Part shown: piece by piece, positions 5,597-46,665 of the stretch
Numbering within the stretch: position 1 is the first letter of the stretch
How the letters are laid out: each line of letters starts with the position of its first letter
NCBI GenBank assembly: GCA_003513495.1
Contig: DOPM01000043.1
Span: 907 to 64,906 of the forward strand
DNA: 64,000 bases
Reading direction: 5' to 3'
From: Desulfosporosinus sp.
Lineage (GTDB): Bacteria > Bacillota > Desulfitobacteriia > Desulfitobacteriales > Desulfitobacteriaceae
Position numbers and translations under genes: made by a program
Notes under the pieces: generated by a model
The model's input: the letters and a program-made list of their open reading frames with translations, nothing else
What the model was told of the DNA's origin: nothing
The model's database searches: none

Positions 5597-6757
5597 ATGA
5601 CAAGCCCCTTAGTTATTGTAGTGGGTACTGTTATTTTTCTAGTTTACTGTGGACTCAATTACTATATCGGCCTGCGTGGATGGCAGGCCTTATTTAGTTA
5701 TGTGCCTTTTTTAAGCTCTAAAGTATATTGGCTTGTCTTTTTTCTTCTTTCCTTCTCTTATTTAATCAGCCGGTTTAGCGAGAAATTTCTTCCGACGGTG
5801 TTATACGAAGGACTAACAATAGCAGGTGCTTATTGGATCGCTTTTATGTTCTACTTTTTACTACTCATCAGTGTACTAGATCTTCTAGGATTATTTGACC
5901 GCTGGCTAAGGATTGTACCACTGGATATAAAACAGAGTTTAAACCCCTCCTTGGGATTGAGCGTTTTTATCTTAGTCATTGGTATCGTAAGCTACGGAGC
6001 CTGGAATGCCAGTTATCCTAGGATTAATCATTATGATATATCAATTGCAAAACAAGCAGGAGCCTTAAAGCAATTGCAGGTTGTTATGGTTTCAGACATC
6101 CATTTAGGAACAATCGTTCATCATGATCACCTTCTAAAACTAGTCAATAAGGTAAATGGTTTAAAACCTGACCTGATTCTATTTGTGGGGGATGTGTTCG
6201 ATGAAGATATAGAGTCTAAGAATAAACTGCAAATATCAGAAACTTTTCGTGAACTTACATCAACATACGGTTCTTTTGCTGTACTGGGTAACCATGAATA
6301 CATAGGCGGTAATGCAGATGAAGCCATAAAATATTTGGGTGAAGCAGAGGTTAAGGTCTTAAGGGATAGTTCCCAGGAGATTGCCGGAAGTTTCTATCTG
6401 ATTGGGCGAGATGATTTATCAGGGTCACGTTTCAATGGTGTCAAAAGACAAGACTTAAAGGACATAATGCAAGGAGTAAATCGTTCTCTTCCGTTGATAT
6501 TAATGGATCATCAACCTTCACATTTGGAGGAACCAGTTAAACAAGGGGTGGATTTGCAAGTTTCCGGACATACACATAATGGACAAATGTTTCCCATTCA
6601 GTTCATTACGCAGCGAATTTTTGAACAGGACTGGGGATTACTGCACAAAGGTGATTTTCAACTCATTGTATCGTCGGGATATGGGACATGGGGTCCGCCA
6701 ATTCGAATAGGTAATACTCCAGAAATTGTTGATATTACAATTACGTTTAATCAATAA
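5597..6757 (+). CDS. Membrane-anchored calcineurin-like metallophosphoesterase (YkuE-like architecture)
   Basis: N-terminal hydrophobic segments, then the phosphoesterase motifs DIHLG, GDVFD, GNHE and GHTH. AGGAGG RBS. Confidence 0.85.
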   Translation: MTSPLVIVVGTVIFLVYCGLNYYIGLRGWQALFSYVPFLSSKVYWLVFFLLSFSYLISRFSEKFLPTVLYEGLTIAGAYWIAFMFYFLLLISVLDLLGLFDRWLRIVPLDIKQSLNPSLGLSVFILVIGIVSYGAWNASYPRINHYDISIAKQAGALKQLQVVMVSDIHLGTIVHHDHLLKLVNKVNGLKPDLILFVGDVFDEDIESKNKLQISETFRELTSTYGSFAVLGNHEYIGGNADEAIKYLGEAEVKVLRDSSQEIAGSFYLIGRDDLSGSRFNGVKRQDLKDIMQGVNRSLPLILMDHQPSHLEEPVKQGVDLQVSGHTHNGQMFPIQFITQRIFEQDWGLLHKGDFQLIVSSGYGTWGPPIRIGNTPEIVDITITFNQ

Positions 6758-6764
6758 AAAGATA

Positions 6765-6805
6765 AAGAAGCTCTGAAAGAAACATAGTCTTTAGAGCTTC
6801 TTTTT
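6765..6805 (+). terminator. Intrinsic terminator
   Basis: AAGAAGCTCTGAAAGA (6765-6780) / TCTTTAGAGCTTCTT (6788-6802), one bulge, then TTTA. Confidence 0.75.
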
Positions 6806-6832
6806 AAAGTTCTTATTTTACCCAGTTTAACG

Positions 6833-6889
6833 TTGACTGAAGGGGAGATAAGTGATACTATATTCACAAGTTAATGATACTGATTATCA
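6833..6889 (+). promoter_or_regulatory. Candidate promoter (TTGACT-17-TACTAT) with an overlapping Fur-like 7-1-7 box
   Basis: TTGACT 6833-6838 and TACTAT 6856-6861. TGATACTGATTATCA at 6875-6889 has one mismatch to the Bacillus Fur 7-1-7 consensus TGATAATnATTATCA. Confidence 0.4.
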
Positions 6890-7171
6890 ATTGCAGAGCT
6901 TGTTAATAGGGGTGATAAAAATGCGGACACAATAGAAGTAAAAGTTTGCGGGCATGAACAGCTCAGGGAGGATTATTAGTAAAATATTGTGAAGTAAGGT
7001 GCACCTGAAGTAAGGAAGGGGCATTTTTTTAGAGATATACTTGATAATTGCTTTCAATTACATAATCGGGGTTGAGTAGCTCGAGTTTACACTGTTTGGT
7101 ATATAAAGTAACAATTCGGACATCCGCGGATCTGGGGGAGTAGGAAAGAAATATTTAGGAGGGGTTAGACC

Positions 7172-7477
7172 ATGAGTATAGTATTGGTAGGTGGTCATGA
7201 CAGAATGCATAGCGAATATATGGGAATCTGCTCTAAGCGTGGGCACAGTGTAAAAGTCTATACCCAGATGCCTACTAAGTTTGATAAAGTGATCGGATCG
7301 CCTGATGGAATTGTTTTATTTACTTCGACAGTCTCTCATAAAATGATTCACACGGCAGTTAAAGAAGCGAAAAGAAAGAAAATACCAGTATTCAGAAGTC
7401 ATAGCAGCAGTGGTGCTTCCTTAGACAGACTGCTTAACGAACTTGAAGATACGATCGTTCAGAATTACGGGACATAA
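7172..7477 (+). CDS. DUF2325-family protein
   Basis: 101 aa. MSIVLVGGHDRM...DGIVLFTSTVSHKM...KKIPV fits the DUF2325 pattern as I remember it. AGGAGGGG RBS. Confidence 0.6.
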   Translation: MSIVLVGGHDRMHSEYMGICSKRGHSVKVYTQMPTKFDKVIGSPDGIVLFTSTVSHKMIHTAVKEAKRKKIPVFRSHSSSGASLDRLLNELEDTIVQNYGT

Positions 7478-7512
7478 GCTGCTAATCGACGATTCAAGTG
7501 GAGGAAACGTCA

Positions 7513-8211
7513 ATGTTTCAATTCATACAAAGACTTTTAAAACCGCAACACTTCCACGATATCATTGAGTGTTTAGCAGCTGCTCTGGAAGCGAAAGATT
7601 TATATACAAGCGGTCATTCTACTAGGGTGGGGGATATGTCCTATGATTTGGGGCGCACCATGGGGCTTAAAGGTTCAGAACTAGAAAATATTCATATAGC
7701 AGCACATCTTCATGATATTGGTAAGATGGGTATTTCAGAAAGCATTTTAAACAAAAGAGGTACACTTCTACCTCATGAATGGGCTCAAATACAAAACCAT
7801 TCAGAGATTGGCTATAAAATTCTAGCCAAATCAAAAGGGCTTAAACAAATCGCTGAAATTGTGCTTCACCATCATGAGCGATGGGACGGGAAAGGTTACC
7901 CTAATGGCTTACGAAAGAATGAAATACCATTGGGTTCAAGAATTATTGGGGTGGCTGATGCTATAGACGCAATTACTTCGATACGACCCTATCGAAAAGC
8001 TTTATCTTGGGAGGAATGCTGGGATGAGGTAATTCTAAACAAAGGAATACAATTCGACCCAGTGGTTGTAGAAGCGTCAGAAAAGCTGTGGAAAAAATGG
8101 AGAGACAGATGGCTGGAGTCTCAAAAGAATCATGACAAGGAAATTGAAGGTTATGTGAGTAAGTTCTTACATATAGAAGAGAAACTTTACCGAAAGCCTA
8201 ATGAGTTATGA
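7513..8211 (+). CDS. HD-GYP domain protein (probable c-di-GMP phosphodiesterase)
   Basis: HDIGK and HHHERWDGKGYP motifs. ATG 7513 follows GGAGGA. The track ORF starts at GTG 7498. Confidence 0.85.
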   Translation: MFQFIQRLLKPQHFHDIIECLAAALEAKDLYTSGHSTRVGDMSYDLGRTMGLKGSELENIHIAAHLHDIGKMGISESILNKRGTLLPHEWAQIQNHSEIGYKILAKSKGLKQIAEIVLHHHERWDGKGYPNGLRKNEIPLGSRIIGVADAIDAITSIRPYRKALSWEECWDEVILNKGIQFDPVVVEASEKLWKKWRDRWLESQKNHDKEIEGYVSKFLHIEEKLYRKPNEL

Positions 8212-8250
8212 ATAGAATAAATACATATGTAAATGAGTTTACTATAGGGA

Positions 8251-8297
8251 ATCATGAAGGAAGGGGAGCGTTTAATACGCTCCCCTTCCTTCATGAT
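8251..8297. terminator. Bidirectional terminator between convergent genes
   Basis: Perfect 20-bp stem ATCATGAAGGAAGGGGAGCG (8251-8270) / CGCTCCCCTTCCTTCATGAT (8278-8297), 7-nt loop. Confidence 0.8.
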
Positions 8298-8316
8298 ATA
8301 TAATTTTGCAAACTTC

Positions 8317-9513
8317 CTACTTAAGTGCTTCCCCGACACTCCGACCGAGTTCCAGACAACTTGCTGCTGCATCGCTATCCGGATTCCAGGTTACCCTTAG
8401 GCCTTCATTTAGAAGTTCAAATCCGCCTTTGCTTAATTCAGAGGAAATGAGTTTAGTGTTTTCACCACTCCAGCCATAACTACCAAAGGCAACCGCTTTT
8501 TTGTTTTTAAATCCTAAACCTTTAATCATTTCTAGAATCCCAGCAACGGAGAAGAGGATGCCTTTATTGATAGTCGGTGAACCTACAATAATCGCCTTTG
8601 ACTTAAAGACTTCAGAAATGATATCGTTTTTATCTGTGTGAGTAGAGTTGCAATTAAACAACTTTACGGTTACAGTTTTGTTACTTTGTTTGATTCCGGC
8701 GGCTATTGTCTCGGCCATATGTCGGGTACTGTTCCACATTGTGTCATAGATGATAGTAATTTGATTTTCTTGGTAATCCTTTGCCCATCCCATATACTTG
8801 TCAACTATTTGCAAAGGATTATCCCGCCAGATAACACCATGACTTGGACAAATCATATCCACAGGTAGGTTGAAGCTTAAGATTTCATTAATTTTATTTT
8901 CTACCATTTTACTGAACGGAGTTAAGATATTGGCATAATATTTAAGAGCTTCTTGATATAGCTCGGCTTGGTCGACTAAGTCATTAAACATATGCTCTGA
9001 TGCCAAATGCTGGCCAAATCCGTCATTGCTGAAAAGAATATTATCCCCGGTCATATAAGTAAACATGGTGTCAGGCCAATGAAGCATTCTAGCCTCAACA
9101 AAAATAAATTCTTTTGAGCCAAGACTTAGTTTGTCCCCCGTTTTGACGGGTATAAAGTTCCAATCCTGATGATACTGGCCTTTTAAGGACTTAATGGCAT
9201 TAGCGGTACAGTAGATAGGGGTGTTGGGAATTTCTCTCATTAATTCGGGTAAAGCTCCACTATGATCGGGTTCACCGTGATTCGCAATGATGTAATCGAT
9301 CGAATTTAGGTCGATTTCTTGTTTCAGTTTAGAGACAAATTCCTTGGCAAAAGGAGTCCAAACAGTATCAATGAGGGCTGTTTTTTCATCACGGACAAGG
9401 AACGAATTGTAGCTGGAACCTCGATGTGTAGAGTACTCGTCACCGTGGAACTTTTGCAATTCCCAGTCGATTTTACCTACCCATTTTACACTCTTGTTAA
9501 TTTCAAAACTCAT
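8317..9513 (-). CDS. Flavodiiron protein (FprA-type O2/NO reductase)
   Basis: Metallo-beta-lactamase-like di-iron motif HGEPDHSG plus a C-terminal flavodoxin-like domain. ATG 9513 (MSFEINK) follows AGGAGG. Confidence 0.9.
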   Translation of the reverse strand: MSFEINKSVKWVGKIDWELQKFHGDEYSTHRGSSYNSFLVRDEKTALIDTVWTPFAKEFVSKLKQEIDLNSIDYIIANHGEPDHSGALPELMREIPNTPIYCTANAIKSLKGQYHQDWNFIPVKTGDKLSLGSKEFIFVEARMLHWPDTMFTYMTGDNILFSNDGFGQHLASEHMFNDLVDQAELYQEALKYYANILTPFSKMVENKINEILSFNLPVDMICPSHGVIWRDNPLQIVDKYMGWAKDYQENQITIIYDTMWNSTRHMAETIAAGIKQSNKTVTVKLFNCNSTHTDKNDIISEVFKSKAIIVGSPTINKGILFSVAGILEMIKGLGFKNKKAVAFGSYGWSGENTKLISSELSKGGFELLNEGLRVTWNPDSDAAASCLELGRSVGEALK

Positions 9514-9639
9514 GATGCAACCTCCTGAATTTAATTTAATAGTAAAACTCCAACTTTCTAGTGGGAGTGGCACCCCGTTCTGCTTTTAGACATTCGATGT
9601 TCGCCTTTTTAAGAAATTTCAATTGGAATAAATTTAGAG

Positions 9640-10848
9640 TTAACCCTCGAAGTTAGCTAATTTATAACGATTACGACCCTCCTGTTTTGCTTGATAAAGA
9701 GCAGAATCTGCAGCTTCAACTAACGTTTTCGGTTGATATGTGTGATCAGCATGTCCGATAGCTACTCCTAGACTTATCGTGACTTTTGGTGTGATGGAGG
9801 AAAGGCGATGGGGAATTTCTAAACTTTCTAGATTTACTCGTAAAGTTTCAGCAACCGTTAAAGCTCCTTCGATATCCGTGTTAGGGAGAACGACCACAAA
9901 TTCTTCTCCACCATACCGAGCAACAAAATCTGAAGGGCGTTTGAGGGAGTTCTTTAAGGAAGACGCTACTTGCCTAAGGCATTCATCCCCTTGTAAGTGA
10001 CCATAAGTATCATTATACGCCTTAAAGAAGTCGATGTCACATAGTATGATTGCTATAGGTTCACTATTACGTGCGGAATGTAACCATAGCTGCTCGAGAA
10101 ATTGATCAAAATGACGGCGATTTGCTATACCGGTTAATCCATCGATTGAAGAAAGAAGACTGAGTTCTTGATTCGCCTTTTCTAATTGAGACCTTTCATT
10201 GAGTAAAGTGTCTGCTAATGGCCTAAAAATATACAAACCAAGAAAAGCAAGGGTTAAAAGAATTGCTGCGCCGCTTGTAATCTCAACCATCCCAAGGCGT
10301 TGAACTTTAGCCTCACTTTCTTTCTGAAACATTGATACTATCTGATCTAGTGATTCCAAGAGGTTTTCGCTGTTTTGAAGCAGGTAAGTAAAGTGAGGAT
10401 TATCTGGAGTAAGCAAATGCTCTGGTTCATTAGCTAAAGCAAGGGCCTCTGATGTATATCGGTTAAACCGTGTGTCCAAATTTATAGGTGGGCTAAAAAA
10501 CACTTTTTGCATTTGAGGGGTTAAACTTTGCGATGATATTATATTAGGAGTATCCTCGATCAAGGCTTTGTGATTTCTTTGTAATTGATTTATTATGCTT
10601 AATAGTTGCTTTCTAGATTGATCTCGCTCAGCAGAATCAGTGATGTAAACAAGTTCTACACTTAGAAGGGCCGCTTTCTGAGACAACCATCGTTGACTTC
10701 CACTTAAATTAACAAGTAAAGCACTATCCTTTTGAGTCAAGATTACAAGGTGCATTGTTATGAAAGTAGCAAGGGTCAATAAGGCAATCAAACCTAAGGC
10801 TGAAATATAAGTGCGCGTAAGCTTAGATAGGGAACGAATCTTCTTCAT
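9640..10848 (-). CDS. Membrane diguanylate cyclase (GGDEF) with a helical extracytoplasmic sensor domain
   Basis: GGEEF active site (RYGGEEFVVV), two TM segments flanking about 160 aa. ATG 10848 (MKKIRSL) follows an AGGGGG RBS. Confidence 0.85.
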   Translation of the reverse strand: MKKIRSLSKLTRTYISALGLIALLTLATFITMHLVILTQKDSALLVNLSGSQRWLSQKAALLSVELVYITDSAERDQSRKQLLSIINQLQRNHKALIEDTPNIISSQSLTPQMQKVFFSPPINLDTRFNRYTSEALALANEPEHLLTPDNPHFTYLLQNSENLLESLDQIVSMFQKESEAKVQRLGMVEITSGAAILLTLAFLGLYIFRPLADTLLNERSQLEKANQELSLLSSIDGLTGIANRRHFDQFLEQLWLHSARNSEPIAIILCDIDFFKAYNDTYGHLQGDECLRQVASSLKNSLKRPSDFVARYGGEEFVVVLPNTDIEGALTVAETLRVNLESLEIPHRLSSITPKVTISLGVAIGHADHTYQPKTLVEAADSALYQAKQEGRNRYKLANFEG

Positions 10849-11125
10849 AGCATACCCCCTAGAGGCAACGTTCATAGACAGCATAGATATAAGTTGTTCG
10901 CTACTGACATCCTGTTCTACCTTCTACGTTTCTCTAAAATAATCCTGCATAATGAATAAATTTATTTAAAAATATTATAACTTAAAAGGAAATACAATCA
11001 AGTAGTCGATTCTTATCCTAAGAAAAGTTGCTAACCTATTATTTGACCACTTTAGGATAACCTGCTACGCTAATATCGTATATTGATATCGGAGAAAGAT
11101 ATCGGTAATATGTAGAGGTGATACA

Positions 11126-11437
11126 GTGGAAAAACAAATCTACCGAAAGCTATTCTTGGGGTTTATTCAGATTCACATTCTTCATCATGCAAAAAAAGAT
11201 CCCATATTCGGTTCCTGGATGTTAAAGGAGCTTCGTGAGCATGGATATAATTTGAGCGCAGGGACTTTATATCCGCTCCTGCATACCATGGATTCAGCTG
11301 GTTTGTTAGAAAAAGAAGATAGGAACGTTGATGGAAAAATTCGAAAGTACTATAAAACGACGGAAAAAGGAAGCGATGTATTGCAGGAAGCGAAAAATAA
11401 AGCCTATGAGCTTTTCAAAGAACTTAATGAACAATGA
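11126..11437 (+). CDS. PadR-family transcriptional regulator
   Basis: 103 aa. LSAGTLYPLLHTMDSAGLL...RKYYKTTEKG is a typical PadR winged helix. GTG start after AGAGGTG. Confidence 0.85.
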   Translation: MEKQIYRKLFLGFIQIHILHHAKKDPIFGSWMLKELREHGYNLSAGTLYPLLHTMDSAGLLEKEDRNVDGKIRKYYKTTEKGSDVLQEAKNKAYELFKELNEQ

Positions 11438-11461
11438 ATTATACAAGGGAGTGATAATCAA

Positions 11462-12082
11462 ATGTACACACTACGTGGTGTGAAATATAAAAGTATATTA
11501 AATATAGACCAACTAGAAATTCCTAAAGAGAGGATCACCTGTATAATTGGAGAAAGCGGAAGTGGGAAGACAACACTTTTAAAGTTATTAAACCATTTAA
11601 TCAGCCCGGATGAAGGGCAAATCTTGTTTCAGAATAGACCTCTATCCCAATGGGATCCGATTGTGCTCAGACGAAAAGTCATGATGCTTTCACAGTCTCC
11701 AGTAATTTTTGAAGGATCTGTAAGGGATAATTTATTAATCGGATTTAAGTTTTGCGAAAAGCCTCAAGTAGGTGATGCTAAAATCCAGGAAGCCATAAAA
11801 ATCGTTCAATTAAATAAGGATATGTCACTTAATGCCAGTTTTCTATCTGGTGGGGAAAAACAACGTTTGGCTATGGCAAGAGTTTTACTGCTGGAACCAA
11901 ACGTTTTTCTTTTGGATGAACCTTCCTCAGCATTAGATGAAGAGACGGCCCAATCAGTAATGGAGCAAATGGTCAAAGAAGTCAAACGTTTGAAGAAAAC
12001 AATGATTATGGTAACCCACTCTAAAGCCTTAGTTCAAGGTTTTGCTGAGCATATCATAGAAATAAAAAAGGCAATGCAGTGA
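11462..12082 (+). CDS. fetA: ABC transporter ATP-binding protein, FetA/YbbL-like
   Basis: Walker A GESGSGKTT, signature LSGGEKQR, Walker B LLDEP. Paired with a UPF0014 permease. Confidence 0.8.
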   Translation: MYTLRGVKYKSILNIDQLEIPKERITCIIGESGSGKTTLLKLLNHLISPDEGQILFQNRPLSQWDPIVLRRKVMMLSQSPVIFEGSVRDNLLIGFKFCEKPQVGDAKIQEAIKIVQLNKDMSLNASFLSGGEKQRLAMARVLLLEPNVFLLDEPSSALDEETAQSVMEQMVKEVKRLKKTMIMVTHSKALVQGFAEHIIEIKKAMQ

Positions 12083-12101
12083 AAACAAAGGAGGCCATTT
12101 T

Positions 12102-12881
12102 ATGCAGGCGAACATAGATTTATCGATTTGGCAAATGACTGCAGCTTATATTTTTATTCTTGTGCTCATAGTCATAGTTAGATTCAAAGGGATTCCGAGA
12201 GAAAAAGAAATTCTAATTTCTTCCCTGAGAATGACCATTCAACTAGTGCTTGTTGGTTATATACTTGCTTTTGTATTTGAACATAGCCATCCCGTTTATA
12301 CTCTGGGGATTATCACCATTATGCTTATCTTTGCTATCAATAACATCTTTAATCGAACTATATTGCAGTTGTCATCTGAAATAAAGAAGGTCATAGCTCT
12401 TTCTATGACCTTGGGAATCCTTGCAAGTATAGCTTATTTTGTGCTTATAGTATTGCAGGTGTACCCTTGGTACGAACCCAGATATATCATCCCGATTGCA
12501 GGTATGATCATCGGCAACTCCATGACAGGTATCTCGTTGGGTGTTAAAACACTTGTCGAAGGAATGACGACCAATAAACAACTAGTTGAAGCTGCCCTGA
12601 TTCTTGGAGCGTCGCCTAAAATGGCCTCTGAGCAGGTTGTGAAAAGCGCGTTTGATGCCGCTATGATGCCGACCATTAACTCTATGGTCGGGATGGGTAT
12701 CGTCTTTTTACCGGGTATGATGACGGGTCAAATACTCGGCGGTGCTTCACCCGTTATAGCGATAGAATATCAAATCGCTGTGATGCTAGGTATTGTTGGC
12801 AGTGTTTCATTAACCGTATTACTTTTTGTACAGTTGGGCTACAAAACGTTTTTTAATTCTCGCAGTCAAATTAAGCTATAA
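12102..12881 (+). CDS. fetB: FetB/YbbM (UPF0014) family ABC permease, putative iron export
   Basis: 259-aa polytopic membrane protein directly downstream of the FetA-like ATPase. Confidence 0.75.
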   Translation: MQANIDLSIWQMTAAYIFILVLIVIVRFKGIPREKEILISSLRMTIQLVLVGYILAFVFEHSHPVYTLGIITIMLIFAINNIFNRTILQLSSEIKKVIALSMTLGILASIAYFVLIVLQVYPWYEPRYIIPIAGMIIGNSMTGISLGVKTLVEGMTTNKQLVEAALILGASPKMASEQVVKSAFDAAMMPTINSMVGMGIVFLPGMMTGQILGGASPVIAIEYQIAVMLGIVGSVSLTVLLFVQLGYKTFFNSRSQIKL

Positions 12882-12923
12882 CTGTATACGAATATATAAT
12901 AGCCATCTTAAAATACGTTAAGA

Positions 12924-12954
12924 GGGGTATGTAATTCTATGAATTACATACCCC
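12924..12954. terminator. Bidirectional terminator
   Basis: Perfect 14-bp stem GGGGTATGTAATTC / GAATTACATACCCC with a 3-nt loop, between convergent genes. Confidence 0.75.
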
Positions 12955-12999
12955 TGTCGTGTTATGGAGTATTTGGAAAACACTTATCGAGATTAAAGA

Positions 13000-14073
13000 T
13001 TACTTAGCTAGTTCAGGAAAATGTTTCTTAATCAATTCGATAAATGCAGGATTTCTTATCTCGGTTGGTTTTGTTGCAGGGTCGTCTTGAAGATCTTCAT
13101 ATTTCATTGCTCCGAAACTGTGATCTTTTGTGAAATGGCCTCGATCATCAGTTGGATTCTTCCACATTAATTTATCTAAATTAAAGGTTTTTCCAGCGTG
13201 GCATTTCAAACAATTATCAGTTGGTTTGTCCGTCGGTAGGAGAGAGCCATTGGCATTAGCCTTATGGGATGTATGACAAGTGAGACACTGATTCATTTCT
13301 GAGCTTTGAGCATGTTTACTAGCAAAGTAATTTCGTGTACCATAGTGATTGTTTGCAATAAAGGTTCCTTGATCATTTTTAGATGGATTACTTTCATGAC
13401 AGGTATTACACGAATTTCTCGCAACTTCAGAGCTCATTGTTCCCTTCTTATCGGTGGCACTGACGTGATTTCCAGCGGGTCCATGGCAAGATTCGCAGGA
13501 TATACCATAATTAGGAGATCCAGTTTCAACTCCAGGCGAATGACATTTTGCACAGTTGGCGTAACTTTCAGCAGTCCAATCGTTTTTGCCATCTTTGTCA
13601 ATATCAGCTTTCTTTGGAGGTTCAACCGCCCATTTGTCGTTTGTTTTCTTAAGTGCTCCAACACGATAAAATTGATTTTTAAATCCAGCTTCTTTAGGAA
13701 TTTCCGCAATAATATAGTTGTTCACCATAACCCCATAGACTTTCGCTTTAGATAAATCTAGAGTCGTCGATGTAGGTTTTTCCTTGTTGGCGGCATCAAA
13801 AATAGTAATTGGTTCTAGAGGTTTATCAAGCGGAAAGGCGGAAAGCGGTTTGAACGTATCATAGTGTTTTGTATGAGTTACATTCTCATAGGACTCAGTG
13901 TGGCAGGCTTTACATGATTCGTCACCAACATAGCTAACCTTTGGAGTTTCCGTTAGCTGCGGTCCAGATGGCTGAGTAGAAGGGGTTTCATCTGCTTGGT
14001 TGCAACCCATGGTTAATACTGTTAAGAATGTAAGAGAAATAATTGAGGCTAAAAAGGGTTTTTTCCAGTTCAT
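13000..14073 (-). CDS. Hexaheme c-type cytochrome, probable lipoprotein
   Basis: Six CxxCH motifs (CKACH, CAKCH, CESCH, CNTCH, CLTCH, CLKCH). Signal peptide ending LTMGC. AAGGAGG RBS. Confidence 0.85.
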   Translation of the reverse strand: MNWKKPFLASIISLTFLTVLTMGCNQADETPSTQPSGPQLTETPKVSYVGDESCKACHTESYENVTHTKHYDTFKPLSAFPLDKPLEPITIFDAANKEKPTSTTLDLSKAKVYGVMVNNYIIAEIPKEAGFKNQFYRVGALKKTNDKWAVEPPKKADIDKDGKNDWTAESYANCAKCHSPGVETGSPNYGISCESCHGPAGNHVSATDKKGTMSSEVARNSCNTCHESNPSKNDQGTFIANNHYGTRNYFASKHAQSSEMNQCLTCHTSHKANANGSLLPTDKPTDNCLKCHAGKTFNLDKLMWKNPTDDRGHFTKDHSFGAMKYEDLQDDPATKPTEIRNPAFIELIKKHFPELAK

Positions 14074-14441
14074 TGAGTCGTTCCTCCTTTAATCTTGTAT
14101 CCATATTTGTTATTTTCTTGACCAGATAGGTCAGGATGACAGGTGTTATTAGACTTTAAAGATTATGAGCTTAGTTTGCTTAGAAACTAATCGGATAATG
14201 CTTGGATATTAATATATTTCGCATGAAATTTATGGAAAAGAATCTCAAAATTCTCTATCCATATTCGAATGCCATAAAAATACCCAAGTTGAGTTACTTC
14301 TATATCATAAAGAAGCGTAAAGATTCGTTTTTTTTCAATAAATATGGCAGAAGTTAAAGGTTTTTGAATTTTATCCTCGAATTAAGTTCAAATAAACTAT
14401 TGGGGTATAGACATATGTAGTCGAAAGAGGTGAACTTCGTC

Positions 14442-15569
14442 GTGCGTTCGCTCAAACACCAGATTCTTATATTGTTGTTGAGTTCGCTCGTTTTGTTGGC
14501 AGTTAGCTTTCTCGTATTGGTTGGGGTATACATGAAAGATCGTGCCGTAGCCACCGCGATTATCAAAGTAAAAGCAGATTTGGCAACCTGTGAAGAGATT
14601 CTAAATAAGACATATCCCGGCTCGTGGTCAGAACAAGGCGGAAACCTTTATAAAGGACCCGTAAAAATAAGCCTTAATAATGATATTGTGGATCATTTAT
14701 CTAGTCTTACAGGGGACACTGTCACCGTATTTCTAGGAGACACGCGAGTCGCTACTACTGTACGTGGTTCAAACGGTGAACGAGTTATTGGGACGAAGGT
14801 TTCTTCTAATGTGGCCCAGACGGTATTGAAAAATGGTCAGACCTATGTGGGAGAGGCTGATGTTGTAGGTGAATGGCACCAAGCGGGTTACATTCCATTA
14901 CGTACAGATAATGGAAACATTATTGGGATTTTTTACGTAGGAATTTCTCATTCCTATGAGCAAGATATTTTTACTAGATCTTTACTTAAGATGGCTGGAA
15001 TAGGACTGGCCTTAACCATCCTGGTGGCGTTTCTTACCTGGTTTTTCCTTCAGAGAGTTATCGTTAATCCTTTGCACAATATCATGTTAGGAACTCGGGA
15101 CGTAGCAACCGGTCATCTCACTGAGAAGATAAACGTTTCCGGAGCTAAGGAAATAGGGGAGCTTGAGGATGCCTTTAACCAAATGGTTGAACAAATCCAA
15201 TCTCTAACTGGAGAGATAAACAGAGTCACTAGCAATAGTTCTGAAAATAGCCCACCTGAAACTAACCACCATGAAAATAACCATTCGATTTCTACTGGGT
15301 ATATACCTCTACCCAACCTATCGGCTGTTGGATCGTTCGGAGAAATGGTTTTGCCTAAAGGTTTGCATCAAGCTACTCTAGGCCAAATAGTTCAGTTTTT
15401 AAATGCGAATCGTCGTCCTCTTTCTGCTGAGGAAGTTGCAGAAGGAGTTAAGCTGACAAGGGTTACAGTACGCCGTTACCTAGAATTCCTCGAACAAAAT
15501 GGAACATTAAAATCTGAACAGAAGTATGGAACAGTGGGACGGCCCGTCAAGATCTTTATCCCGTTGTAA
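14442..15569 (+). CDS. Membrane one-component regulator: Cache-like sensor + HAMP + CitB/DcuR-type C-terminal HTH, with no kinase or receiver domain
   Basis: TM1, then a periplasmic Cache-like region (GDTVTVFLGDTRVATTV...GIFYVGIS). TM2, HAMP, a low-complexity linker, then an HTH LSAEEVAEGVKLTRVTVRRYLEFLEQNG...YGTVGRPVKIF. GTG 14442 lies 9 nt after AAGAGGTG. The track start is 14430. Confidence 0.8.
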   Translation: MRSLKHQILILLLSSLVLLAVSFLVLVGVYMKDRAVATAIIKVKADLATCEEILNKTYPGSWSEQGGNLYKGPVKISLNNDIVDHLSSLTGDTVTVFLGDTRVATTVRGSNGERVIGTKVSSNVAQTVLKNGQTYVGEADVVGEWHQAGYIPLRTDNGNIIGIFYVGISHSYEQDIFTRSLLKMAGIGLALTILVAFLTWFFLQRVIVNPLHNIMLGTRDVATGHLTEKINVSGAKEIGELEDAFNQMVEQIQSLTGEINRVTSNSSENSPPETNHHENNHSISTGYIPLPNLSAVGSFGEMVLPKGLHQATLGQIVQFLNANRRPLSAEEVAEGVKLTRVTVRRYLEFLEQNGTLKSEQKYGTVGRPVKIFIPL

Positions 15570-15617
15570 AAAGGTTCCCGATGGGGGCGTCCCATTTTAA
15601 AAAACATATATTTTTTC

Positions 15618-15652
15618 AGAGACTCCTCTTTAATTAGGTGGAGTCTTTTTTA
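15618..15652 (+). terminator. Intrinsic terminator
   Basis: AGACTCC (15620-15626) / GGAGTCT (15640-15646), followed by T6. Confidence 0.7.
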
Positions 15653-15984
15653 GTTCAAGGGTTGGGTACCGTTAGTTGTTATTATTATCAAGTGCAATTG
15701 TATTGTTATGGACAAATAGTTATCAGACTAGTATGCATATTTGGACTTAACTACTTACTTCGCCATTTTCTTAATTAATAAAATTTTCTTTATTCACAAA
15801 ACGCTTATTTAATGTCCAAAAACACGACAGATCGAGTGAAGGAAGCTAAACTAGAAATAAAAACCGACGTTCCCCATTAGATATCGATAAGCCGTAGAGA
15901 TTAAATTTGGAGAAAGCGCAAAATCAATTAAGAAAGAGGTGTAAATGAAGGTAACATTCGCTGGTAGTAAAAAGGAGGATTTTC

Positions 15985-16473
15985 ATGTGTGATACAGCTT
16001 CGCCAAATCAGTTTGTCAAAAAGCTAGATGATTATATCGACAGTTTGACCAATAAAAAGGAAAATCTTATTGGGGTCCTTCATTACGCTCAAGAAATATA
16101 TGGATACTTACCTAATAATGTTCAATGGCATATCGCTCAGAAACTGGATATACCTTCCGCAATGGTCTATGGTGTTGTCAGCTTTTATTCTTTTTTTACA
16201 ATGATACCCAGGGGAGAACACGTGGTTAATGTGTGCACCGGTACCGCTTGTTTTGTTCGAGGGGCTGAAAAATTAAAAGAAGAACTTGAAAATCAGCTTA
16301 AGATTAAAGCTGGGGAAACTACTCCAGATAATCTGTTTACCTTAGAAACTTTGCGTTGTGTTGGAGCCTGTGGGCTCGCTCCAGTCATGATCGTCGATGG
16401 TGAAGTGCATGGACGCATGCACGAACCCCAAGCCATTAACGAGGTCTTGGCAAAGTATCGCCCAGAAAGTTAA
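15985..16473 (+). CDS. hydC: NuoE-like [2Fe-2S] subunit of NADH-linked [FeFe]-hydrogenase (HydC)
   Basis: Thioredoxin-like 2Fe-2S pattern C-x4-C...C-x3-C (VCTGTAC...CVGACGLAP). First gene of the hydCBA order. AAGGAGG RBS. Confidence 0.9.
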   Translation: MCDTASPNQFVKKLDDYIDSLTNKKENLIGVLHYAQEIYGYLPNNVQWHIAQKLDIPSAMVYGVVSFYSFFTMIPRGEHVVNVCTGTACFVRGAEKLKEELENQLKIKAGETTPDNLFTLETLRCVGACGLAPVMIVDGEVHGRMHEPQAINEVLAKYRPES

Positions 16474-16491
16474 GCAGCGAATACATGAGGT

Positions 16492-16518
16492 GTGTCAAGG
16501 GGACGATCCTTTTGACAC
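16492..16518. repeat. 27-bp palindromic repeat, copy A (GTGTCAAGGGGACGATCCTTTTGACAC)
   Basis: Its reverse complement differs from copy B at one position. Lies in the hydC-hydB intergenic space. Confidence 0.9.
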
Positions 16519-16526
16519 GAAGAAGT

Positions 16527-16553
16527 GTGTCAAAAGGACCGTCCCCTTGACAC
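16527..16553. repeat. 27-bp palindromic repeat, copy B (GTGTCAAAAGGACCGTCCCCTTGACAC)
   Basis: Same family as 45136-45161 and 55841-55868. Inverted relative to copy A, 8 nt away. Confidence 0.9.
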
Positions 16554-16578
16554 GCCCTCGAAGGAAGGGAAAAGCCAT

Positions 16579-18465
16579 ATGAAACTCATAAATATAGATG
16601 CATTGAAGGCATTACAAGCCCAAAGTCTAAAACTCTTAGAATCACGGCGTGTTGCCGAAGCAATTACAACAAAAAATGCTCAAGGGCATGTAAGGCACGT
16701 TATGGTCTGCGGAGGACCTGGTTGTCACTCTTCAGGCAGTCCTCGAATCGCTGAAGTTCTAGAGGAAGAGCTAAATAGGCGTGGATTATCCGATACGATT
16801 AAAGTTTTCGAACCCGGCTGTTTTGGTTTTTGTGAAAAGGGTCCAATGATCGAGATTTTTCCCGATAAAGTAACTTATTGTGAAGTGTCGGCAGACGATG
16901 TAACAACCATAGTTGAAGAACACTTTATAAAAGGTAATGTAATAGAGCACCTCCTTTTTATGGATCCGAACACTAAAGAGCGTTTCGCCACCAACATTCC
17001 TTTTTATGATGGGCAACTTCGCATAGCCTTAAGGAATGTCGGTTCTATTGCTCCAGAAAACATTCTTGAATATATTGCCGCGGATGGCTATCAAGCTTTA
17101 TCCAAAGTCCTTTTCAGCATGAAGCCTTTTGAAGTTATTGATGTTCTAAAACAAAGCGGACTGCGGGGACGTGGTGGCGCCGGTTTTCCAACTGGTGTTA
17201 AATGGGAGTTGACTCGCAAGAGCGAAGCAGATCAACGCTATATCATTTGTAATGCCGATGAAGGGGATCCAGGCGCCTTTATGGACCGCTCTGTCTTGGA
17301 GGGTGACCCCCATAGTGTTTTAGAGGCAATGCTCATTGCAGGCGCAACGATTGGGGCTTCTGAAGGATTTATTTATGTCCGAGCAGAATACCCTGCAGCG
17401 ATTCACCGATTAAAAATTGCCATTGCCCAGGCCCGAGATTTTGGTTTACTTGGGAAAGAAATCTTAGGCAGTGATTTTTCCTTTGACATAGAGCTTAAAC
17501 TTGGAGCTGGAGCCTTTGTCTGTGGTGAAGAAACGGCATTGATCCATTCTATCGAAGGAGCCCGAGGAGAACCTTCTGTTAAACCTCCATTCCCCGCCCA
17601 AAAGGGGTTGTGGGGTAAACCAACCTGCGTTAACAATGTCGAAACCTTGGCTAATATTCCACCAATTATTTTAAATGGAGCGGAATGGTTTTCAGCAATA
17701 GGCACAGAAAAAAGCAAAGGAACAAAAGTATTTGCTTTGGCAGGAAAAGTCAATAATGTCGGGCTTGTGGAAGTTCCCATGGGGACCACTCTGCGTCAGA
17801 TAATTTTTGATATTGGTGGAGGGATTAAGCAACGTAAAACGTTTAAAGCCGCTCAAACCGGAGGCCCCTCTGGAGGGTGTATTCCTACCAAGTATTTGGA
17901 TTCTCCCATCGATTATGAATCTTTAGCTTCTATAGGATCTATGATGGGTTCTGGAGGACTCATTGTCCTGGATGAAGATGATTGTATGGTCAATATCGCC
18001 AAGTTTTTCCAGGAGTTCACAATGGATGAATCCTGTGGTCGTTGCACTGCTTGCCGCGTTGGGACGAAACGTCTTTATGAAATCCTGACCAAGATCACGG
18101 AAGGGAAAGCGACTTTAGAGGATTTAGATAATTTAGAGAAACTGTGTCATATCATTAAAGACACTGCCCTTTGCGGATTAGGACAAAGTGCACCAAACCC
18201 CATCCTTTCGACCTTAAAGTATTTCCGGGAAGAATATATCGCCCATGTTGTCGACAAAAACTGTCCGGCGGGCGTTTGTAGTCACTTGTTGAAATATGAA
18301 ATTACAGACAAATGTGTGGGTTGTACCCTATGCGTTAAAAAATGTCCTATGCATTGTATCACTGGGACAACCAAGAAGCGCCATGTCATCGATCAAGAAC
18401 GTTGCCTAAAATGTGGGGCCTGCATGGACCAATGCCGCGTTATCGGGGCCATTATTCGCCATTAA
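16579..18465 (+). CDS. hydB: NuoF-like NADH/FMN-binding subunit of [FeFe]-hydrogenase (HydB)
   Basis: GLRGRGGAGFPTG FMN/NAD motif, N-terminal thioredoxin-like domain, C-terminal 2x[4Fe-4S] CxxCxxCxxxCP. ATG 16579 (MKLINID) follows GGAAGGGA. The 18 upstream codons in the track ORF are a translation of the repeat. Confidence 0.9.
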   Translation: MKLINIDALKALQAQSLKLLESRRVAEAITTKNAQGHVRHVMVCGGPGCHSSGSPRIAEVLEEELNRRGLSDTIKVFEPGCFGFCEKGPMIEIFPDKVTYCEVSADDVTTIVEEHFIKGNVIEHLLFMDPNTKERFATNIPFYDGQLRIALRNVGSIAPENILEYIAADGYQALSKVLFSMKPFEVIDVLKQSGLRGRGGAGFPTGVKWELTRKSEADQRYIICNADEGDPGAFMDRSVLEGDPHSVLEAMLIAGATIGASEGFIYVRAEYPAAIHRLKIAIAQARDFGLLGKEILGSDFSFDIELKLGAGAFVCGEETALIHSIEGARGEPSVKPPFPAQKGLWGKPTCVNNVETLANIPPIILNGAEWFSAIGTEKSKGTKVFALAGKVNNVGLVEVPMGTTLRQIIFDIGGGIKQRKTFKAAQTGGPSGGCIPTKYLDSPIDYESLASIGSMMGSGGLIVLDEDDCMVNIAKFFQEFTMDESCGRCTACRVGTKRLYEILTKITEGKATLEDLDNLEKLCHIIKDTALCGLGQSAPNPILSTLKYFREEYIAHVVDKNCPAGVCSHLLKYEITDKCVGCTLCVKKCPMHCITGTTKKRHVIDQERCLKCGACMDQCRVIGAIIRH

Positions 18466-18489
18466 GGTATCCCTGAAGGAGGACTCCAT

Positions 18490-20232
18490 ATGGATATACA
18501 GCTAACCATTAATGACATATCTCTAACAGTGCCGGAAGGAATGTCCATCTTAGATGCTGCACGAACCATAAACATCGATATTCCGACCTTATGCTACTTG
18601 AAACTTAATGAAATGCATTACAACAACAACATTGCTTCCTGTCGGGTCTGTGTGGTCGAAATCGAAGGTCGACGTAATTTGGCATCCTCTTGTTCAACCC
18701 CAGTAGCAAGCGGTATGGTTGTCAAAACCGATTCGCTGCGCGCTATCCAGGCCAGACGGGCTATGGTTGAGCTTCTCCTTTCTGACCACCCTAAATCTTG
18801 TTTAACCTGTGCAAAAAACCAGGATTGTGACCTTCAATCCTTAGCCTCGGAATTAGGCGTGCGCCATATCTCCTATGAAGGAGAAGAGTCTGAGTTTGAA
18901 ATTGATCGCTCGAGTTCTTCCATTGTTCGAGATCCTAATAAATGTATTCGTTGCCGCCGTTGTGAAACCATGTGTAACGAGGTACAGACGGTGGGTGTTT
19001 ACTCTGCCGTGGGACGCGGTTTTGAGACGGTTGTTAAAACAGCCTTTGATCTACCTCTTAGCCAAACCGCTTGCACCTTCTGCGGACAGTGTATAGCAGT
19101 TTGCCCTACTGGTGCATTAACGGAATTGGATCAGGTAGACAAAGTTTGGAAAGCTCTCAACGACCCTAATCAATTTGTCGTTGTACAAACTGCTCCAGCC
19201 GTACGGGTTGCGCTAGGGGAGGAATTCGATTTAGAGCCGGGGACGATTGTGACAGGTAAAATGGTCGCGGCTCTTCGACGGCTTGGTTTTGACCGTGTCT
19301 TTGATACGGATTTTGCAGCTGATCTGACGATTATGGAGGAAGCAACCGAGCTTGTCCATCGTATAAAACATGGCGGTCGACTACCTCTGCTCACCAGTTG
19401 TTGCCCTGCCTGGGTTAAATTCTTCGAACATCAATTTCCAGATCTCTTGGACATTCCTTCAACTTGTAAATCTCCTCATGAAATGTTAGGGGTTTTGATT
19501 AAAAGTTATTATGCTAGAACCCTGGGAATCGATCCTAAGACCATTACGGTTGTATCCGTGATGCCCTGTGTTGCCAAAAAATACGAAGCCGCTCGTCCTG
19601 AACTAGCTCAAGGTTCAGAAACTGCGGATGTGGACATCGTCATCACGACTCGTGAACTTGCTCGTATGGTTCGGGAAGCCAGCATTCACTTTGATCATCT
19701 CAAAGACCAAGAATTTGACCACCCCTTGGGGGAATCCACTGGTGCCTCCGTAATCTTTGGAGCAACCGGTGGAGTGCTCGAGGCTGCCTTACGGACAGCC
19801 TATGAGGTAATCACAGGTGAAACTTTGGAGAAAGTGGAGTTTGAGGTTCTGCGAGGAATGGATGGACTTAAGGAAGCAGTGATCCCTATTGCGGGAAGGG
19901 ATTACCGAGCAGCAGTTATCCACGGCCTAGGTAACGCTCGTAAGGTCCTAGAGAAAATACAAGCAGGGGAAAGTAATTATGACGTAATTGAAATCATGGC
20001 TTGCCCTGGAGGATGTATTGGGGGAGGCGGACAACCCTATCATCATGGGAACTTAGATATTCTAACTGACCGAGCCGGAGCCTTATACCGTGAAGACCGA
20101 AATAAACCTTTGCGGAAGTCGCATGAAAATCCGGCCATTATAGGCCTTTATAAAGACTTCTTAGGCGAGCCCTATGGAGAAAGGGCTCATAAGCTGCTGC
20201 ATACCAGCTACGTGGGACGTAAGAAGATCTAG
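18490..20232 (+). CDS. hydA: [FeFe]-hydrogenase catalytic subunit (HydA) with N-terminal 2Fe-2S and 4Fe-4S domains
   Basis: H-cluster motifs TSCCPAWV, MPCVAKKYE and EIMACPGGCIGGGGQP. GAAGGAGG RBS. Confidence 0.95.
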   Translation: MDIQLTINDISLTVPEGMSILDAARTINIDIPTLCYLKLNEMHYNNNIASCRVCVVEIEGRRNLASSCSTPVASGMVVKTDSLRAIQARRAMVELLLSDHPKSCLTCAKNQDCDLQSLASELGVRHISYEGEESEFEIDRSSSSIVRDPNKCIRCRRCETMCNEVQTVGVYSAVGRGFETVVKTAFDLPLSQTACTFCGQCIAVCPTGALTELDQVDKVWKALNDPNQFVVVQTAPAVRVALGEEFDLEPGTIVTGKMVAALRRLGFDRVFDTDFAADLTIMEEATELVHRIKHGGRLPLLTSCCPAWVKFFEHQFPDLLDIPSTCKSPHEMLGVLIKSYYARTLGIDPKTITVVSVMPCVAKKYEAARPELAQGSETADVDIVITTRELARMVREASIHFDHLKDQEFDHPLGESTGASVIFGATGGVLEAALRTAYEVITGETLEKVEFEVLRGMDGLKEAVIPIAGRDYRAAVIHGLGNARKVLEKIQAGESNYDVIEIMACPGGCIGGGGQPYHHGNLDILTDRAGALYREDRNKPLRKSHENPAIIGLYKDFLGEPYGERAHKLLHTSYVGRKKI

Positions 20233-46351: not shown

Positions 46352-46571
46352 GTAATCCCTTACGGTTATTTCTCAGTTTCTTAAGGCAGTTTGGGCACTG
46401 GGCACGATTTTAATTAAATGATGATTATGAAATTATTTTGGCGAAATGACAACTTGTTATATCGCCTTTTTATTTAGTTATAGGGGGGATAGAAATAAGG
46501 AATGTGAAACCGGCCTTCCTATAGAAGGTAAACAATGCTTTTGGGTTGAATAACTCAATTAGTTGTAAACT

Positions 46572-46665
46572 TAAAATACGCAAACCTAATGAAAGTTAGG
46601 GACGCAAAGCCACGGGTCTAAGGGTCGTACTTTGTACAATCACGATAGCCGGGTTGCAGAAGCGC
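46572..46665 (+). promoter_or_regulatory. c-di-GMP-I (GEMM-I) riboswitch aptamer
   Basis: ACGCAAACC-UAAUGAAAGUUAGG-GACGCAAAGCC-ACGGGUCUAA...AGCCGGGUUGC matches the conserved GEMM-I core (GCAAACC, GNRA loop, GGGACGCAAAGCC, CGG.CUAA, AGC.GGGUU.C). Confidence 0.85.

Follow-up and report, generated by a model that had tools for sequence, protein, structure and literature searches.

Several lines of earlier work bear on the system considered here. The characterised regulators of the CitB family (CitB, DcuR, CitT, DctR and MalR) are activators, and in CadC the DNA-binding domain is joined to the membrane anchor by a disordered cytoplasmic linker that tolerates changes in length. Among described membrane regulators, the closest to unite a helix-turn-helix (HTH) and a HAMP domain is ArnR, which responds to starvation and is controlled by Ser/Thr kinases (PMC6396743). 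Formate recognition has been described for chemoreceptors, the sCache domains of O. ruminantium R6 (8PY0) and A. benevestitus R3 (8PY1) having been solved with formate (Monteagudo-Cascales et al., PNAS 2025; PMC11804620). In these pockets, formate is contacted by a conserved Arg (PacF R142, R6 R111) through a salt bridge and by Thr and Tyr as hydrogen-bond donors, while anything larger than formate is kept out by a Phe on the floor of the pocket (R6 F175) (PMC11804620). Here, we describe a gene from Desulfosporosinus sp. (assembly GCA_003513495.1) encoding a membrane-bound one-component regulator with an extracytoplasmic Cache sensor, a HAMP domain and a C-terminal HTH, located in a stretch of 64,000 nucleotides (contig DOPM01000043.1, positions 907 to 64,906, forward strand; hereafter the window). 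This protein, referred to below as the regulator, is probably a formate-activated, membrane-tethered activator of hydCBA, the [FeFe] hydrogenase operon directly downstream.

The regulator gene is an intact open reading frame (ORF; 14430/14442-15569, + strand), and the GTG at 14442, which gives 375 amino acids, is its likely start because homologues begin with MRSLKHQ and the alternative GTG at 14430 falls within the Shine-Dalgarno-like AAAGAGGTGA. From N- to C-terminus, the protein is composed of a first transmembrane helix (TM1), an extracytoplasmic sCache_3_3 domain, a second transmembrane helix (TM2), a HAMP domain, a disordered linker and a CitB/DcuR-type winged HTH, an order which an earlier note on this DNA had proposed and which is borne out by Pfam, NCBIfam, hydropathy and AlphaFold2. 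Pfam residue positions follow a 379-residue numbering, and TM positions the 375-residue one. In the former, sCache_3_3 matches residues 79-179 (E 5.5e-35, 120.4 bits; model positions 2-102 of 107), with a partial Cache_3-Cache_2 match (positions 84-197 of 299), HAMP matches residues 206-257 (E 2.1e-12, 47.6 bits against a cut-off of 25), directly after TM2, which ends at about residue 207, HTH_11 matches residues 319-367 (31.7 bits, above the cut-off of 25), and the ‘DpiA-like’ HTH_64 matches residues 332-376 just below its cut-off (24.2 against 27 bits). As the same note had held, there is no receiver domain and no histidine kinase: the Pfam scan of the regulator gave no match to Response_reg (E up to 1), HisKA, HATPase, MCPsignal or Trans_reg_C, and the methyl-accepting chemotaxis protein (MCP) models of NCBIfam match in the TM2-HAMP region only. 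A kinase or receiver hidden behind a frameshift, a possibility raised at that stage, is ruled out by the intact ORF, by relatives of similar length, nearly all with the same domains (343-448 amino acids in all 120 90%-identity clusters listed, of 449 matches) and by a terminator-like hairpin after the stop codon. In an AlphaFold2 model built on an 18-sequence alignment, the Cache and winged-HTH modules are confident, with a predicted local distance difference test score (pLDDT) of 84-90 for the HTH, and residues 268-305 fall below 50, coinciding with the low-complexity stretch already quoted as a linker.

The C-terminal domain, as judged from its sequence, belongs with the output domains of CitB, DcuR and DpiA, as previously suggested. 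Among the NCBIfam models, it covers positions 154-222 of 239 in DcuR (E 1.2e-10) and positions 155-223 of 226 in DpiA. It can also be aligned over its full length with the output domains in 14 Response_reg-type matches, the motifs LPKG[LIV], RVTxRRYL and GRP being common to the regulator HTH and these receiver-containing proteins. LPKG is invariant in 98 of 98 family members examined. The HTH_64 score exceeds the cut-off in seven of eight distant relatives scanned (28.1-35.8 bits), the eighth (P0230) reaching 26.5 bits, and precomputed PF20714 (HTH_64) matches exist for many close homologues. The regulator is not a response regulator, as it lacks the receiver domain that defines one.

The sensor points to formate. 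Its best fold match in the PDB is 8PY0 (Foldseek; E 5.8e-8, target TM-score 0.74, 32% identity), followed by 8PY1, and the same two entries are the best sequence matches of the family profile (hmmsearch; E 2.1e-15 and 1.6e-12, respectively). A phmmer comparison of the regulator sensor with 8PY0 (E 1.9e-13) provided a residue-by-residue alignment, in which the formate-coordinating positions of R6 and PacF could be assigned to regulator residues (Table 1). The pocket residues R102, T95, T105, T118 and Y150 are conserved in 82-85 of 85 family members, the Arg in 82 and both Thr95 and Tyr150 in all 85, across the three gene contexts described below. Of the published hallmarks of a formate-specific sCache domain, the Pfam family match and the Arg/Thr/Tyr set are present, the exception being a Phe-to-Tyr change at the pocket floor. 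The CitA/DcuS model sCache_3_2 scores only 36.5 bits as against 120.4 bits for sCache_3_3, the NCBIfam DpiB model matches the regulator at only E 8e-4, and the CitA and DcuS sensor domains are distant fold matches (ranks 10-22, Foldseek). On the evidence of sequence comparison and modelled fold, the sensor is not of the CitA type and is closest to formate-binding chemoreceptor domains, with formate as the predicted ligand.

The genes next to the regulator and its relatives support this assignment. ORFs were called and clustered in 85 loci, 79 of which have a called downstream gene. In 71 of these 79, the gene immediately following that of the regulator, in the same orientation, belongs to one of three sets: hydC-hydB-hydA (type A; 25 regulator copies, including the window regulator; hydCBA is the conserved downstream neighbour in 24 loci), a gene for a FocA-like transporter of the formate/nitrite (FNT) family (type B; 21 copies), or fdnG, which carries an in-frame TGA for selenocysteine, followed by fdnH, fdnI and fdhE (type C; 25 copies). 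Four of the eight exceptions represent the same contexts split by an insertion sequence (IS) element or one extra ORF. HydA reaches 918 bits, well over the required 765, with the NCBIfam model ‘NADH-dependent [FeFe] hydrogenase, group A6’, the type B transporter scores 247 bits for FocA and 105 bits for NirC, and the type C formate dehydrogenase (FDH) subunits match the alpha, beta and gamma subunits of FDH-N (NCBIfam). Two distant family members precede fdnGHI and hypABFCDE, and the common theme of the regulator neighbourhoods is formate and hydrogen metabolism. In type C loci, including L051 (7386-10508), fdnG is split into two ORFs by the in-frame TGA just after HQARI, consistent with a selenocysteine-containing FDH-N-type enzyme exported by the twin-arginine translocation (Tat) pathway. 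In Desulfosporosinus acidiphilus SJ4 (L005), a DDE transposase of an IS element (7501-9105) is found between the regulator and the FocA-like gene, an insertion that may uncouple the two.

The three contexts share a candidate operator. AT-rich repeats with a 20-nt consensus, ATTTTCTTTATTTACAAAAT (matrix of about 16 bits), occur in the spacers between regulator and target in all of them. Two context types at a time served to train a position weight matrix, which was then applied to the remaining one, with 124 other intergenic regions of the same loci as controls. In this cross-validation, the matrix separates target spacers from controls with an area under the curve of 0.98-0.99, and 88-92% of the target spacers score above the 95th percentile of the controls. 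The best operator sites are oriented towards the target in 65 of 66 cases, and the spacers upstream of the regulator score like controls. The sites are tandem direct repeats, 18-20 or 29-31 bp apart, corresponding to two or three helical turns. Among 66 non-redundant loci, 65 show the same succession of a proximal repeat, the hexamer nnGAC[AT], a spacer of 16-18 nt (17 nt in 59 of the 65) and TAnnnT, the gap between the proximal repeat and the hexamer being exactly 1 bp in 48 of these 65. In the window, three such repeats lie between the regulator and hydC, and the sites at 15765-15784 and 15783-15802 are the two best matrix matches on either strand of the 64 kb, the next reaching 13.2 bits. 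A separate pattern search is circular, its pattern having been derived from these two sites, and establishes no more than their uniqueness in the window. Shared palindromes in the two spacers flanking the regulator (14074-14441 and 15570-15984), for which the earlier note had advised looking, were rejected, since the operator is a direct repeat and occurs in the downstream spacer only.

Taken together, these features suggest the following mechanism. External formate would bind to the extracytoplasmic sCache domain, and the signal would pass via TM2 into a canonical HAMP dimer. The C-terminal winged HTHs, each on a flexible tether of about 40 residues, would occupy the directly repeated sites at 15765-15822 (each unit about 20 bp), which end 1 bp before a weak -35 box, and the bound HTHs would recruit RNA polymerase to the hydCBA promoter, leading to formate-dependent expression of an NADH-dependent [FeFe] hydrogenase. 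Sister paralogues would extend this control to a formate/H2 regulon in Desulfitobacteriaceae that also comprises the FocA-like channel and the selenocysteine-containing FDH-N-type formate dehydrogenase. The domain order, the topology signals, the conservation of the family, the regular gene neighbourhoods, the common operator and promoter layout and the likeness of the pocket to formate-bound structures are observed; formate as the ligand, activation rather than repression, DNA binding while the protein is membrane-tethered, and the manner of HAMP control of the HTH are presumed in this scheme. For the step from HAMP to HTH, our preferred guess is a signal-dependent release or alignment of the two tethered HTHs of a dimer; release of an HTH docked on HAMP, changed higher-order clustering or cleavage of the linker would be alternatives.

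A number of points speak against formate-dependent activation of this kind. The loci are evolutionarily related, and the operator statistics overstate their independence, a problem which the cross-type test reduces and does not remove. The pocket-floor Phe is Tyr165 in the regulator and Tyr in 78 of 85 members, being invariant in the 18-sequence alignment; the change is conservative, and the size selectivity for the ligand could differ. The key Arg is missing in P0134, a distant member adjoining an FDH operon. In two type A regulators (L049 and L053, at ~6001, from Desulfosporosinus sp. BG and sp. OT), Arg is replaced by Pro, Thr118 by Gly and Tyr165 by Cys; both keep the hydCBA context and strong operator arrays despite these losses, and they may be ligand-blind or altered in specificity. 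Formate and a cytoplasmic NADH-dependent hydrogenase are connected here by arguments from physiology rather than by evidence, and no RNA-seq run contains the regulator sequence, which occurs only in DNA metagenomes (rock porewater, cold seep and groundwater). The three paralogue types, with the same pocket signature, recognition helix and operator, may not act separately. Finally, HAMP and HTH are joined by a disordered linker of variable length (28-78 residues), through which no rigid conformational signal could pass.

The deviations in the pocket bear on a reading in which architecture, targets and operator are as described and the Cache domain senses another small molecule, such as acetate, bicarbonate/CO2 or another short carboxylate. 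We consider this rather unlikely. It is favoured by the Tyr in place of the pocket-limiting Phe, by an identity to 8PY0 of only 32%, by members without the Arg that keep the same gene contexts, and by the range of carboxylates bound by sCache domains as a class. Set against it are the near-complete retention, across the 85 members, of the formate-pocket residues (Arg, Tyr and two Thr), the fact that the two best structure and sequence matches are both formate complexes, and the formate-specific nature of two of the three target sets (FocA-like channel and FDH-N). Outside these 85, the Arg is retained in only 6 of 13 more distant relatives without HAMP, and those proteins may sense something else.

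The linker raises a different question. It ranges from 28 to 78 residues across the family, is rich in Glu, Ser, Thr, Asn and Pro, and contains no conserved sequence and no conserved cleavage motif in the family alignment. Being disordered and exposed, it would be accessible to proteases, and a signal-triggered cut that frees a soluble HTH to activate transcription would both solve the coupling between HAMP and HTH and account for the unconstrained length; the earlier note had advised testing for such a release. Such proteolytic activation is nonetheless doubtful in our view, as a linker that varies fully among homologues offers no cleavage motif, no protease gene is conserved in the regulator neighbourhoods of the 85 loci, an irreversible cut fits poorly with a fluctuating metabolite, and ToxR and CadC are tethered regulators able to bind DNA. 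By our own estimate, a tether of at least 28 residues could span about 10 nm when extended, enough for sites 20-30 bp apart. Returning to tethered activation, it may tentatively be proposed, as an idea that we think improbable at present, that a new signalling design is at work, in which HAMP controls a DNA-binding domain across a long, variable, disordered linker with neither phosphotransfer nor proteolysis, and in which each paralogue acts mainly in cis. Co-translational membrane insertion would hold the gene and the adjacent promoter at the membrane, so that the tethered HTHs reach only the adjacent operator. Action in cis would explain why up to three paralogues with the same pocket, helix and operator each lie directly before their own target; that this strict adjacency reflects such action may be said only as speculation.

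The position of the operator relative to the promoter bears on the direction of control. A strict sigma-70 scan found no consensus promoter on the + strand before hydC, and it misses the putative hydCBA promoter because this matches only 8 of 12 consensus positions; across loci, the initial TT of a TTGACA hexamer is regularly missing from the -35 box (nnGACA). The absence of a consensus promoter fits a weak, activator-dependent one. We infer an activator because the -35 box is non-consensus, no consensus promoter is present, and the known members of the CitB family activate. A repressor, or an anti-activator of hydCBA released by its ligand, would find some backing in an operator that abuts and nearly overlaps the -35 box, where it could block RNA polymerase. 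This is quite unlikely, given the non-consensus -35 (nnGACA) in 65 of 66 loci, the location of the repeats upstream of the -35 rather than over the -10 or the start site, their spacing by whole helical turns, which is the usual layout for activators, and the activating role of known CitB-family members. The predicted hydC leader (15853-15984, + strand; predicted transcription start at about 15859) is about 130 nt long in the window and 10-307 nt among the loci, and neither the spacers nor this leader gave an Rfam match in the window scan.

The gene on the other side of the regulator encodes a divergent hexahaem cytochrome c. The earlier note had correctly placed it there, along with hydCBA 416 nt downstream of the regulator (hydC start at 15985), and had left either as a possible target; this is now resolved in favour of hydCBA as the predicted target, a conserved downstream operon carrying the shared operator. 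The cytochrome gene was rejected as a target and is probably not under control of the regulator: the upstream neighbour varies among loci, being the cytochrome gene in only 7, and the spacer at 14074-14441 has no operator (best 10.3 bits, at control level). The N-terminal signal of the cytochrome ends in LTMGC, resembling a lipoprotein lipobox, which would suggest a surface-anchored multihaem cytochrome in a Gram-positive cell. CitA and DcuS are not known to have a HAMP domain. That the regulator is a collapsed CitA/CitB pathway sensing citrate or C4-dicarboxylates and possibly controlling the cytochrome gene, the collapse having been proposed in the earlier note, is highly improbable, since the CitB/DcuR-type output domain, the weaker sCache_3_2 match (36.5 bits) and the distant fold matches to the CitA and DcuS sensors are outweighed by a formate-type sCache_3_3 sensor (120 bits) far better matched by formate-bound domains, by the absence of citrate or dicarboxylate genes from all 85 neighbourhoods, and by a cytochrome gene that is adjacent in 7 loci only and whose spacer is without an operator.

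By sequence searches, the regulator belongs to a conserved, lineage-restricted family of membrane-bound one-component regulators of the Desulfitobacteriaceae. A search of 5.8 billion proteins returned 449 matches, and the 120 90%-identity clusters listed are 57-99% identical, nearly all with the same Pfam domain set and, where a source is named, nearly all from Desulfosporosinus or Desulfitobacteriaceae. These relatives bear automated names only, such as ‘cache domain-containing protein’ or ‘response regulator of citrate/malate metabolism’. TM1, Cache, TM2, HAMP and HTH are conserved in the family alignment, and the HTH invariably begins with LPKGL. When one genome was scanned for each GTDB species, 335 relatives were found, of which the best 80 gave 78 loci, nearly all from Desulfosporosinus, Desulfitobacterium, Acididesulfobacillus and related metagenome-assembled genomes. 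An HTH-only search of 1.84 billion representative proteins gave 725 relatives; the Cache-(HAMP)-HTH layout is found in about 20 clusters at 50% identity, and the remaining matches examined are Response_reg plus HTH_64 regulators of 220-240 amino acids. Some genomes contain up to three regulator paralogues, and in genomes such as D. paludis, D. nitroreducens, D. lacus and D. hippei there is one for each context. D. youngiae, D. orientis and D. acidiphilus likewise have orthologues or paralogues. Type C paralogues form a clean clade, types A and B are intermixed, and all three are alike in pocket signature, recognition helix (LTRVTVRRYLEFLE) and operator. Desulfosporosinus fructosivorans (L013, ~6004-13000) has a tandem arrangement of regulator, FocA-like gene, regulator and hydCBA with an operator in each spacer, which may be a snapshot of how intermixed A and B paralogues arise by local duplication. 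Three distant members (L085, 6001-7152; L086, 6001-7050; L087, 6001-7110) combine sCache_3_3 and HTH_64 with no Pfam HAMP match and often lack the formate Arg; one precedes hypABFCDE ([NiFe]-hydrogenase maturation), one precedes fdnGHI with an 18.5-bit operator, and one precedes MauE/DoxX-like genes.

The architecture had not been recognised as characterised in the earlier note, and this holds. No study characterising the regulator or its family was found in the literature searched (Cache/HAMP/HTH one-component regulators, Desulfosporosinus and Desulfitobacterium formate regulators, and HTH_64), and the metatranscriptome paper on Ca. D. infrequens makes no gene-level statement on these genes under formate amendment. 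The architecture is no one-off: the best 80 matches in reference genomes represent 78 loci of the family, and a 2016 census of Cache domains tabulates 14 sCache_3_3 proteins with transcription-factor outputs with no further description. The existence of such fusions was thus already on record, and a ligand, operator, promoter and targets are now predicted for a family of them.

The features of the window that concern the regulator and its neighbours are collected in Table 1. Homologous loci have similar GC-rich hairpins and T-runs directly after the stop codon of the regulator, and the hairpin at 15618-15654 was missed by a stock terminator scan, probably owing to a plain-stem rule unsuited to its interrupted stem. 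The true start of hydB may be an ATG near 16576. Elsewhere in the window, a small operon (11126-12881, + strand) encodes a PadR-family regulator, an ATPase of the ATP-binding cassette (ABC) type and a UPF0014 membrane protein, and a full-length c-di-GMP-I riboswitch aptamer (46569-46661, + strand; RF01051, 69.9 bits against a gathering threshold of 35) is the sole Rfam match.

Table 1. Predicted features of the regulator locus. Residues follow the 375-residue numbering.
Feature	Position in window	Strand	Basis or remark
Divergent hexahaem cytochrome c gene	13000-14073	-	Six CXXCH motifs
Shine-Dalgarno-like AAAGAGGTGA	14424-14433	+	Ends ~9 nt before GTG 14442; read from sequence
Regulator gene, sCache_3_3/HAMP/CitB-type HTH, membrane-bound one-component regulator	14442-15569	+	375 amino acids
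TM1, residues 8-26	14463-14519	+	Kyte-Doolittle 19-residue window score 3.05; AlphaFold2 helix over residues 8-61
Extracytoplasmic formate-type sCache domain, residues 27-184	14520-14993	+	Pfam, Foldseek, phmmer, pocket alignment
T95 (R6 T100)	14724-14726	+	Alignment
R102 (R6 R111)	14745-14747	+	Alignment
T105 (PacF T145)			Alignment
T118 (PacF T158)			Alignment
Y150 (R6 Y160)	14889-14891	+	Alignment
Y165 (R6 F175, pocket floor)	14934-14936	+	Alignment
TM2, residues 185-203	14994-15050	+	Hydropathy score 2.26
HAMP, residues 202-253	15045-15200	+	Canonical Pro in AS1, KEIGELEDAFNQM motif in AS2; conserved in paralogue types A, B and C
Disordered low-complexity linker, residues about 264-301	15231-15344	+	AlphaFold2 pLDDT; varies among homologues
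CitB/DcuR/DpiA-type winged HTH, residues 304-375	15351-15566	+	Opens with invariant LPKGL; recognition helix LTRVTVRRYLEFLE
Terminator-like hairpin (GAGACUCC...GGAGUCU) plus U6	15618-15654	+	RNA fold; ends the transcription unit of the regulator
Three tandem direct operator repeats, predicted regulator sites	15765-15822	+	15765-15784, 19.0 bits; 15783-15802, 24.9 bits; 15803-15822, 10.2 bits
Putative weak hydCBA promoter	15824-15852	+	-35-like ACGACA 15824-15829, 17 nt, -10-like TAAACT 15847-15852
hydC-hydB-hydA, predicted target operon, NADH-dependent [FeFe] hydrogenase	15985-20232	+	hydC 15985-16473, hydB 16525-18465, hydA 18490-20232; Pfam, NCBIfam

If the proposal is true, the regulator would be a transcription factor responding to formate on the outer side of the membrane, for which no earlier description was found in the literature searched, and it would provide a missing regulatory link in the formate and H2 metabolism of sulfate-reducing and organohalide-respiring Firmicutes (Desulfosporosinus and Desulfitobacterium), organisms that matter in the carbon and sulfur cycling of peat, groundwater and the subsurface. 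It raises the mechanistic question of how HAMP controls a DNA-binding domain through a floppy tether, and it makes directly testable predictions as to ligand, key pocket residue (R102), operator, promoter and target operon. Biosensor design would also gain a compact part, namely a one-protein transmembrane formate sensor whose operator is known.

The regulator can be compared with several known systems. As in the FhlA formate regulon of E. coli, a functional analogue, formate is the (here predicted) inducer and the targets include formate dehydrogenase, hydrogenase and hyp maturation genes, whereas FhlA is a soluble sigma-54 enhancer-binding protein that responds to intracellular formate and is unrelated to the regulator in sequence and mechanism. 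Like ToxR, CadC, TcpP and regulators of the PsaE type, the regulator is a single transmembrane polypeptide predicted to sense outside and bind DNA inside; unlike the ToxR/CadC type, with an N-terminal OmpR-type winged HTH, one TM helix and a C-terminal periplasmic sensor, it has the reverse topology, with two TM helices, Cache, HAMP and a C-terminal CitB-type winged HTH. The output domain is homologous over its full length to those of CitB/DpiA, DcuR, CitT, DctR and MalR (Response_reg plus HTH_64), sharing LPKG[LIV], the RVTxRRYL-type recognition helix and YGxVGRP, and in both cases AT-rich repeated operators, predicted for the regulator, lie upstream of activator-dependent promoters. In contrast to these proteins, the regulator has no receiver, no phospho-acceptor Asp and no partner kinase, and the chain itself carries a transmembrane Cache-HAMP module as input; dimerisation driven by phosphorylation therefore cannot be its mode of control. 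ArnR and ArnR1 of Sulfolobus acidocaldarius are, as is proposed for the regulator, membrane-bound one-component activators with an HTH and a putative HAMP domain, but they are archaeal and have the opposite order, with an N-terminal HTH, two C-terminal TM helices and no extracytoplasmic Cache domain (PMC6396743). With the formate sCache/dCache chemoreceptors (PacF, Atu0526, R6/8PY0 and R3/8PY1; PMC11804620), the regulator shares the sensor fold, sCache_3_3, the formate-coordinating Arg/Thr/Tyr and the placement of the sensor between two TM helices followed by HAMP, whereas its output is a DNA-binding domain instead of MCP signalling and its pocket floor carries Tyr in place of Phe. The regulator looks as though domain shuffling had joined an MCP-like formate sensor module to an output domain of the CitB type.

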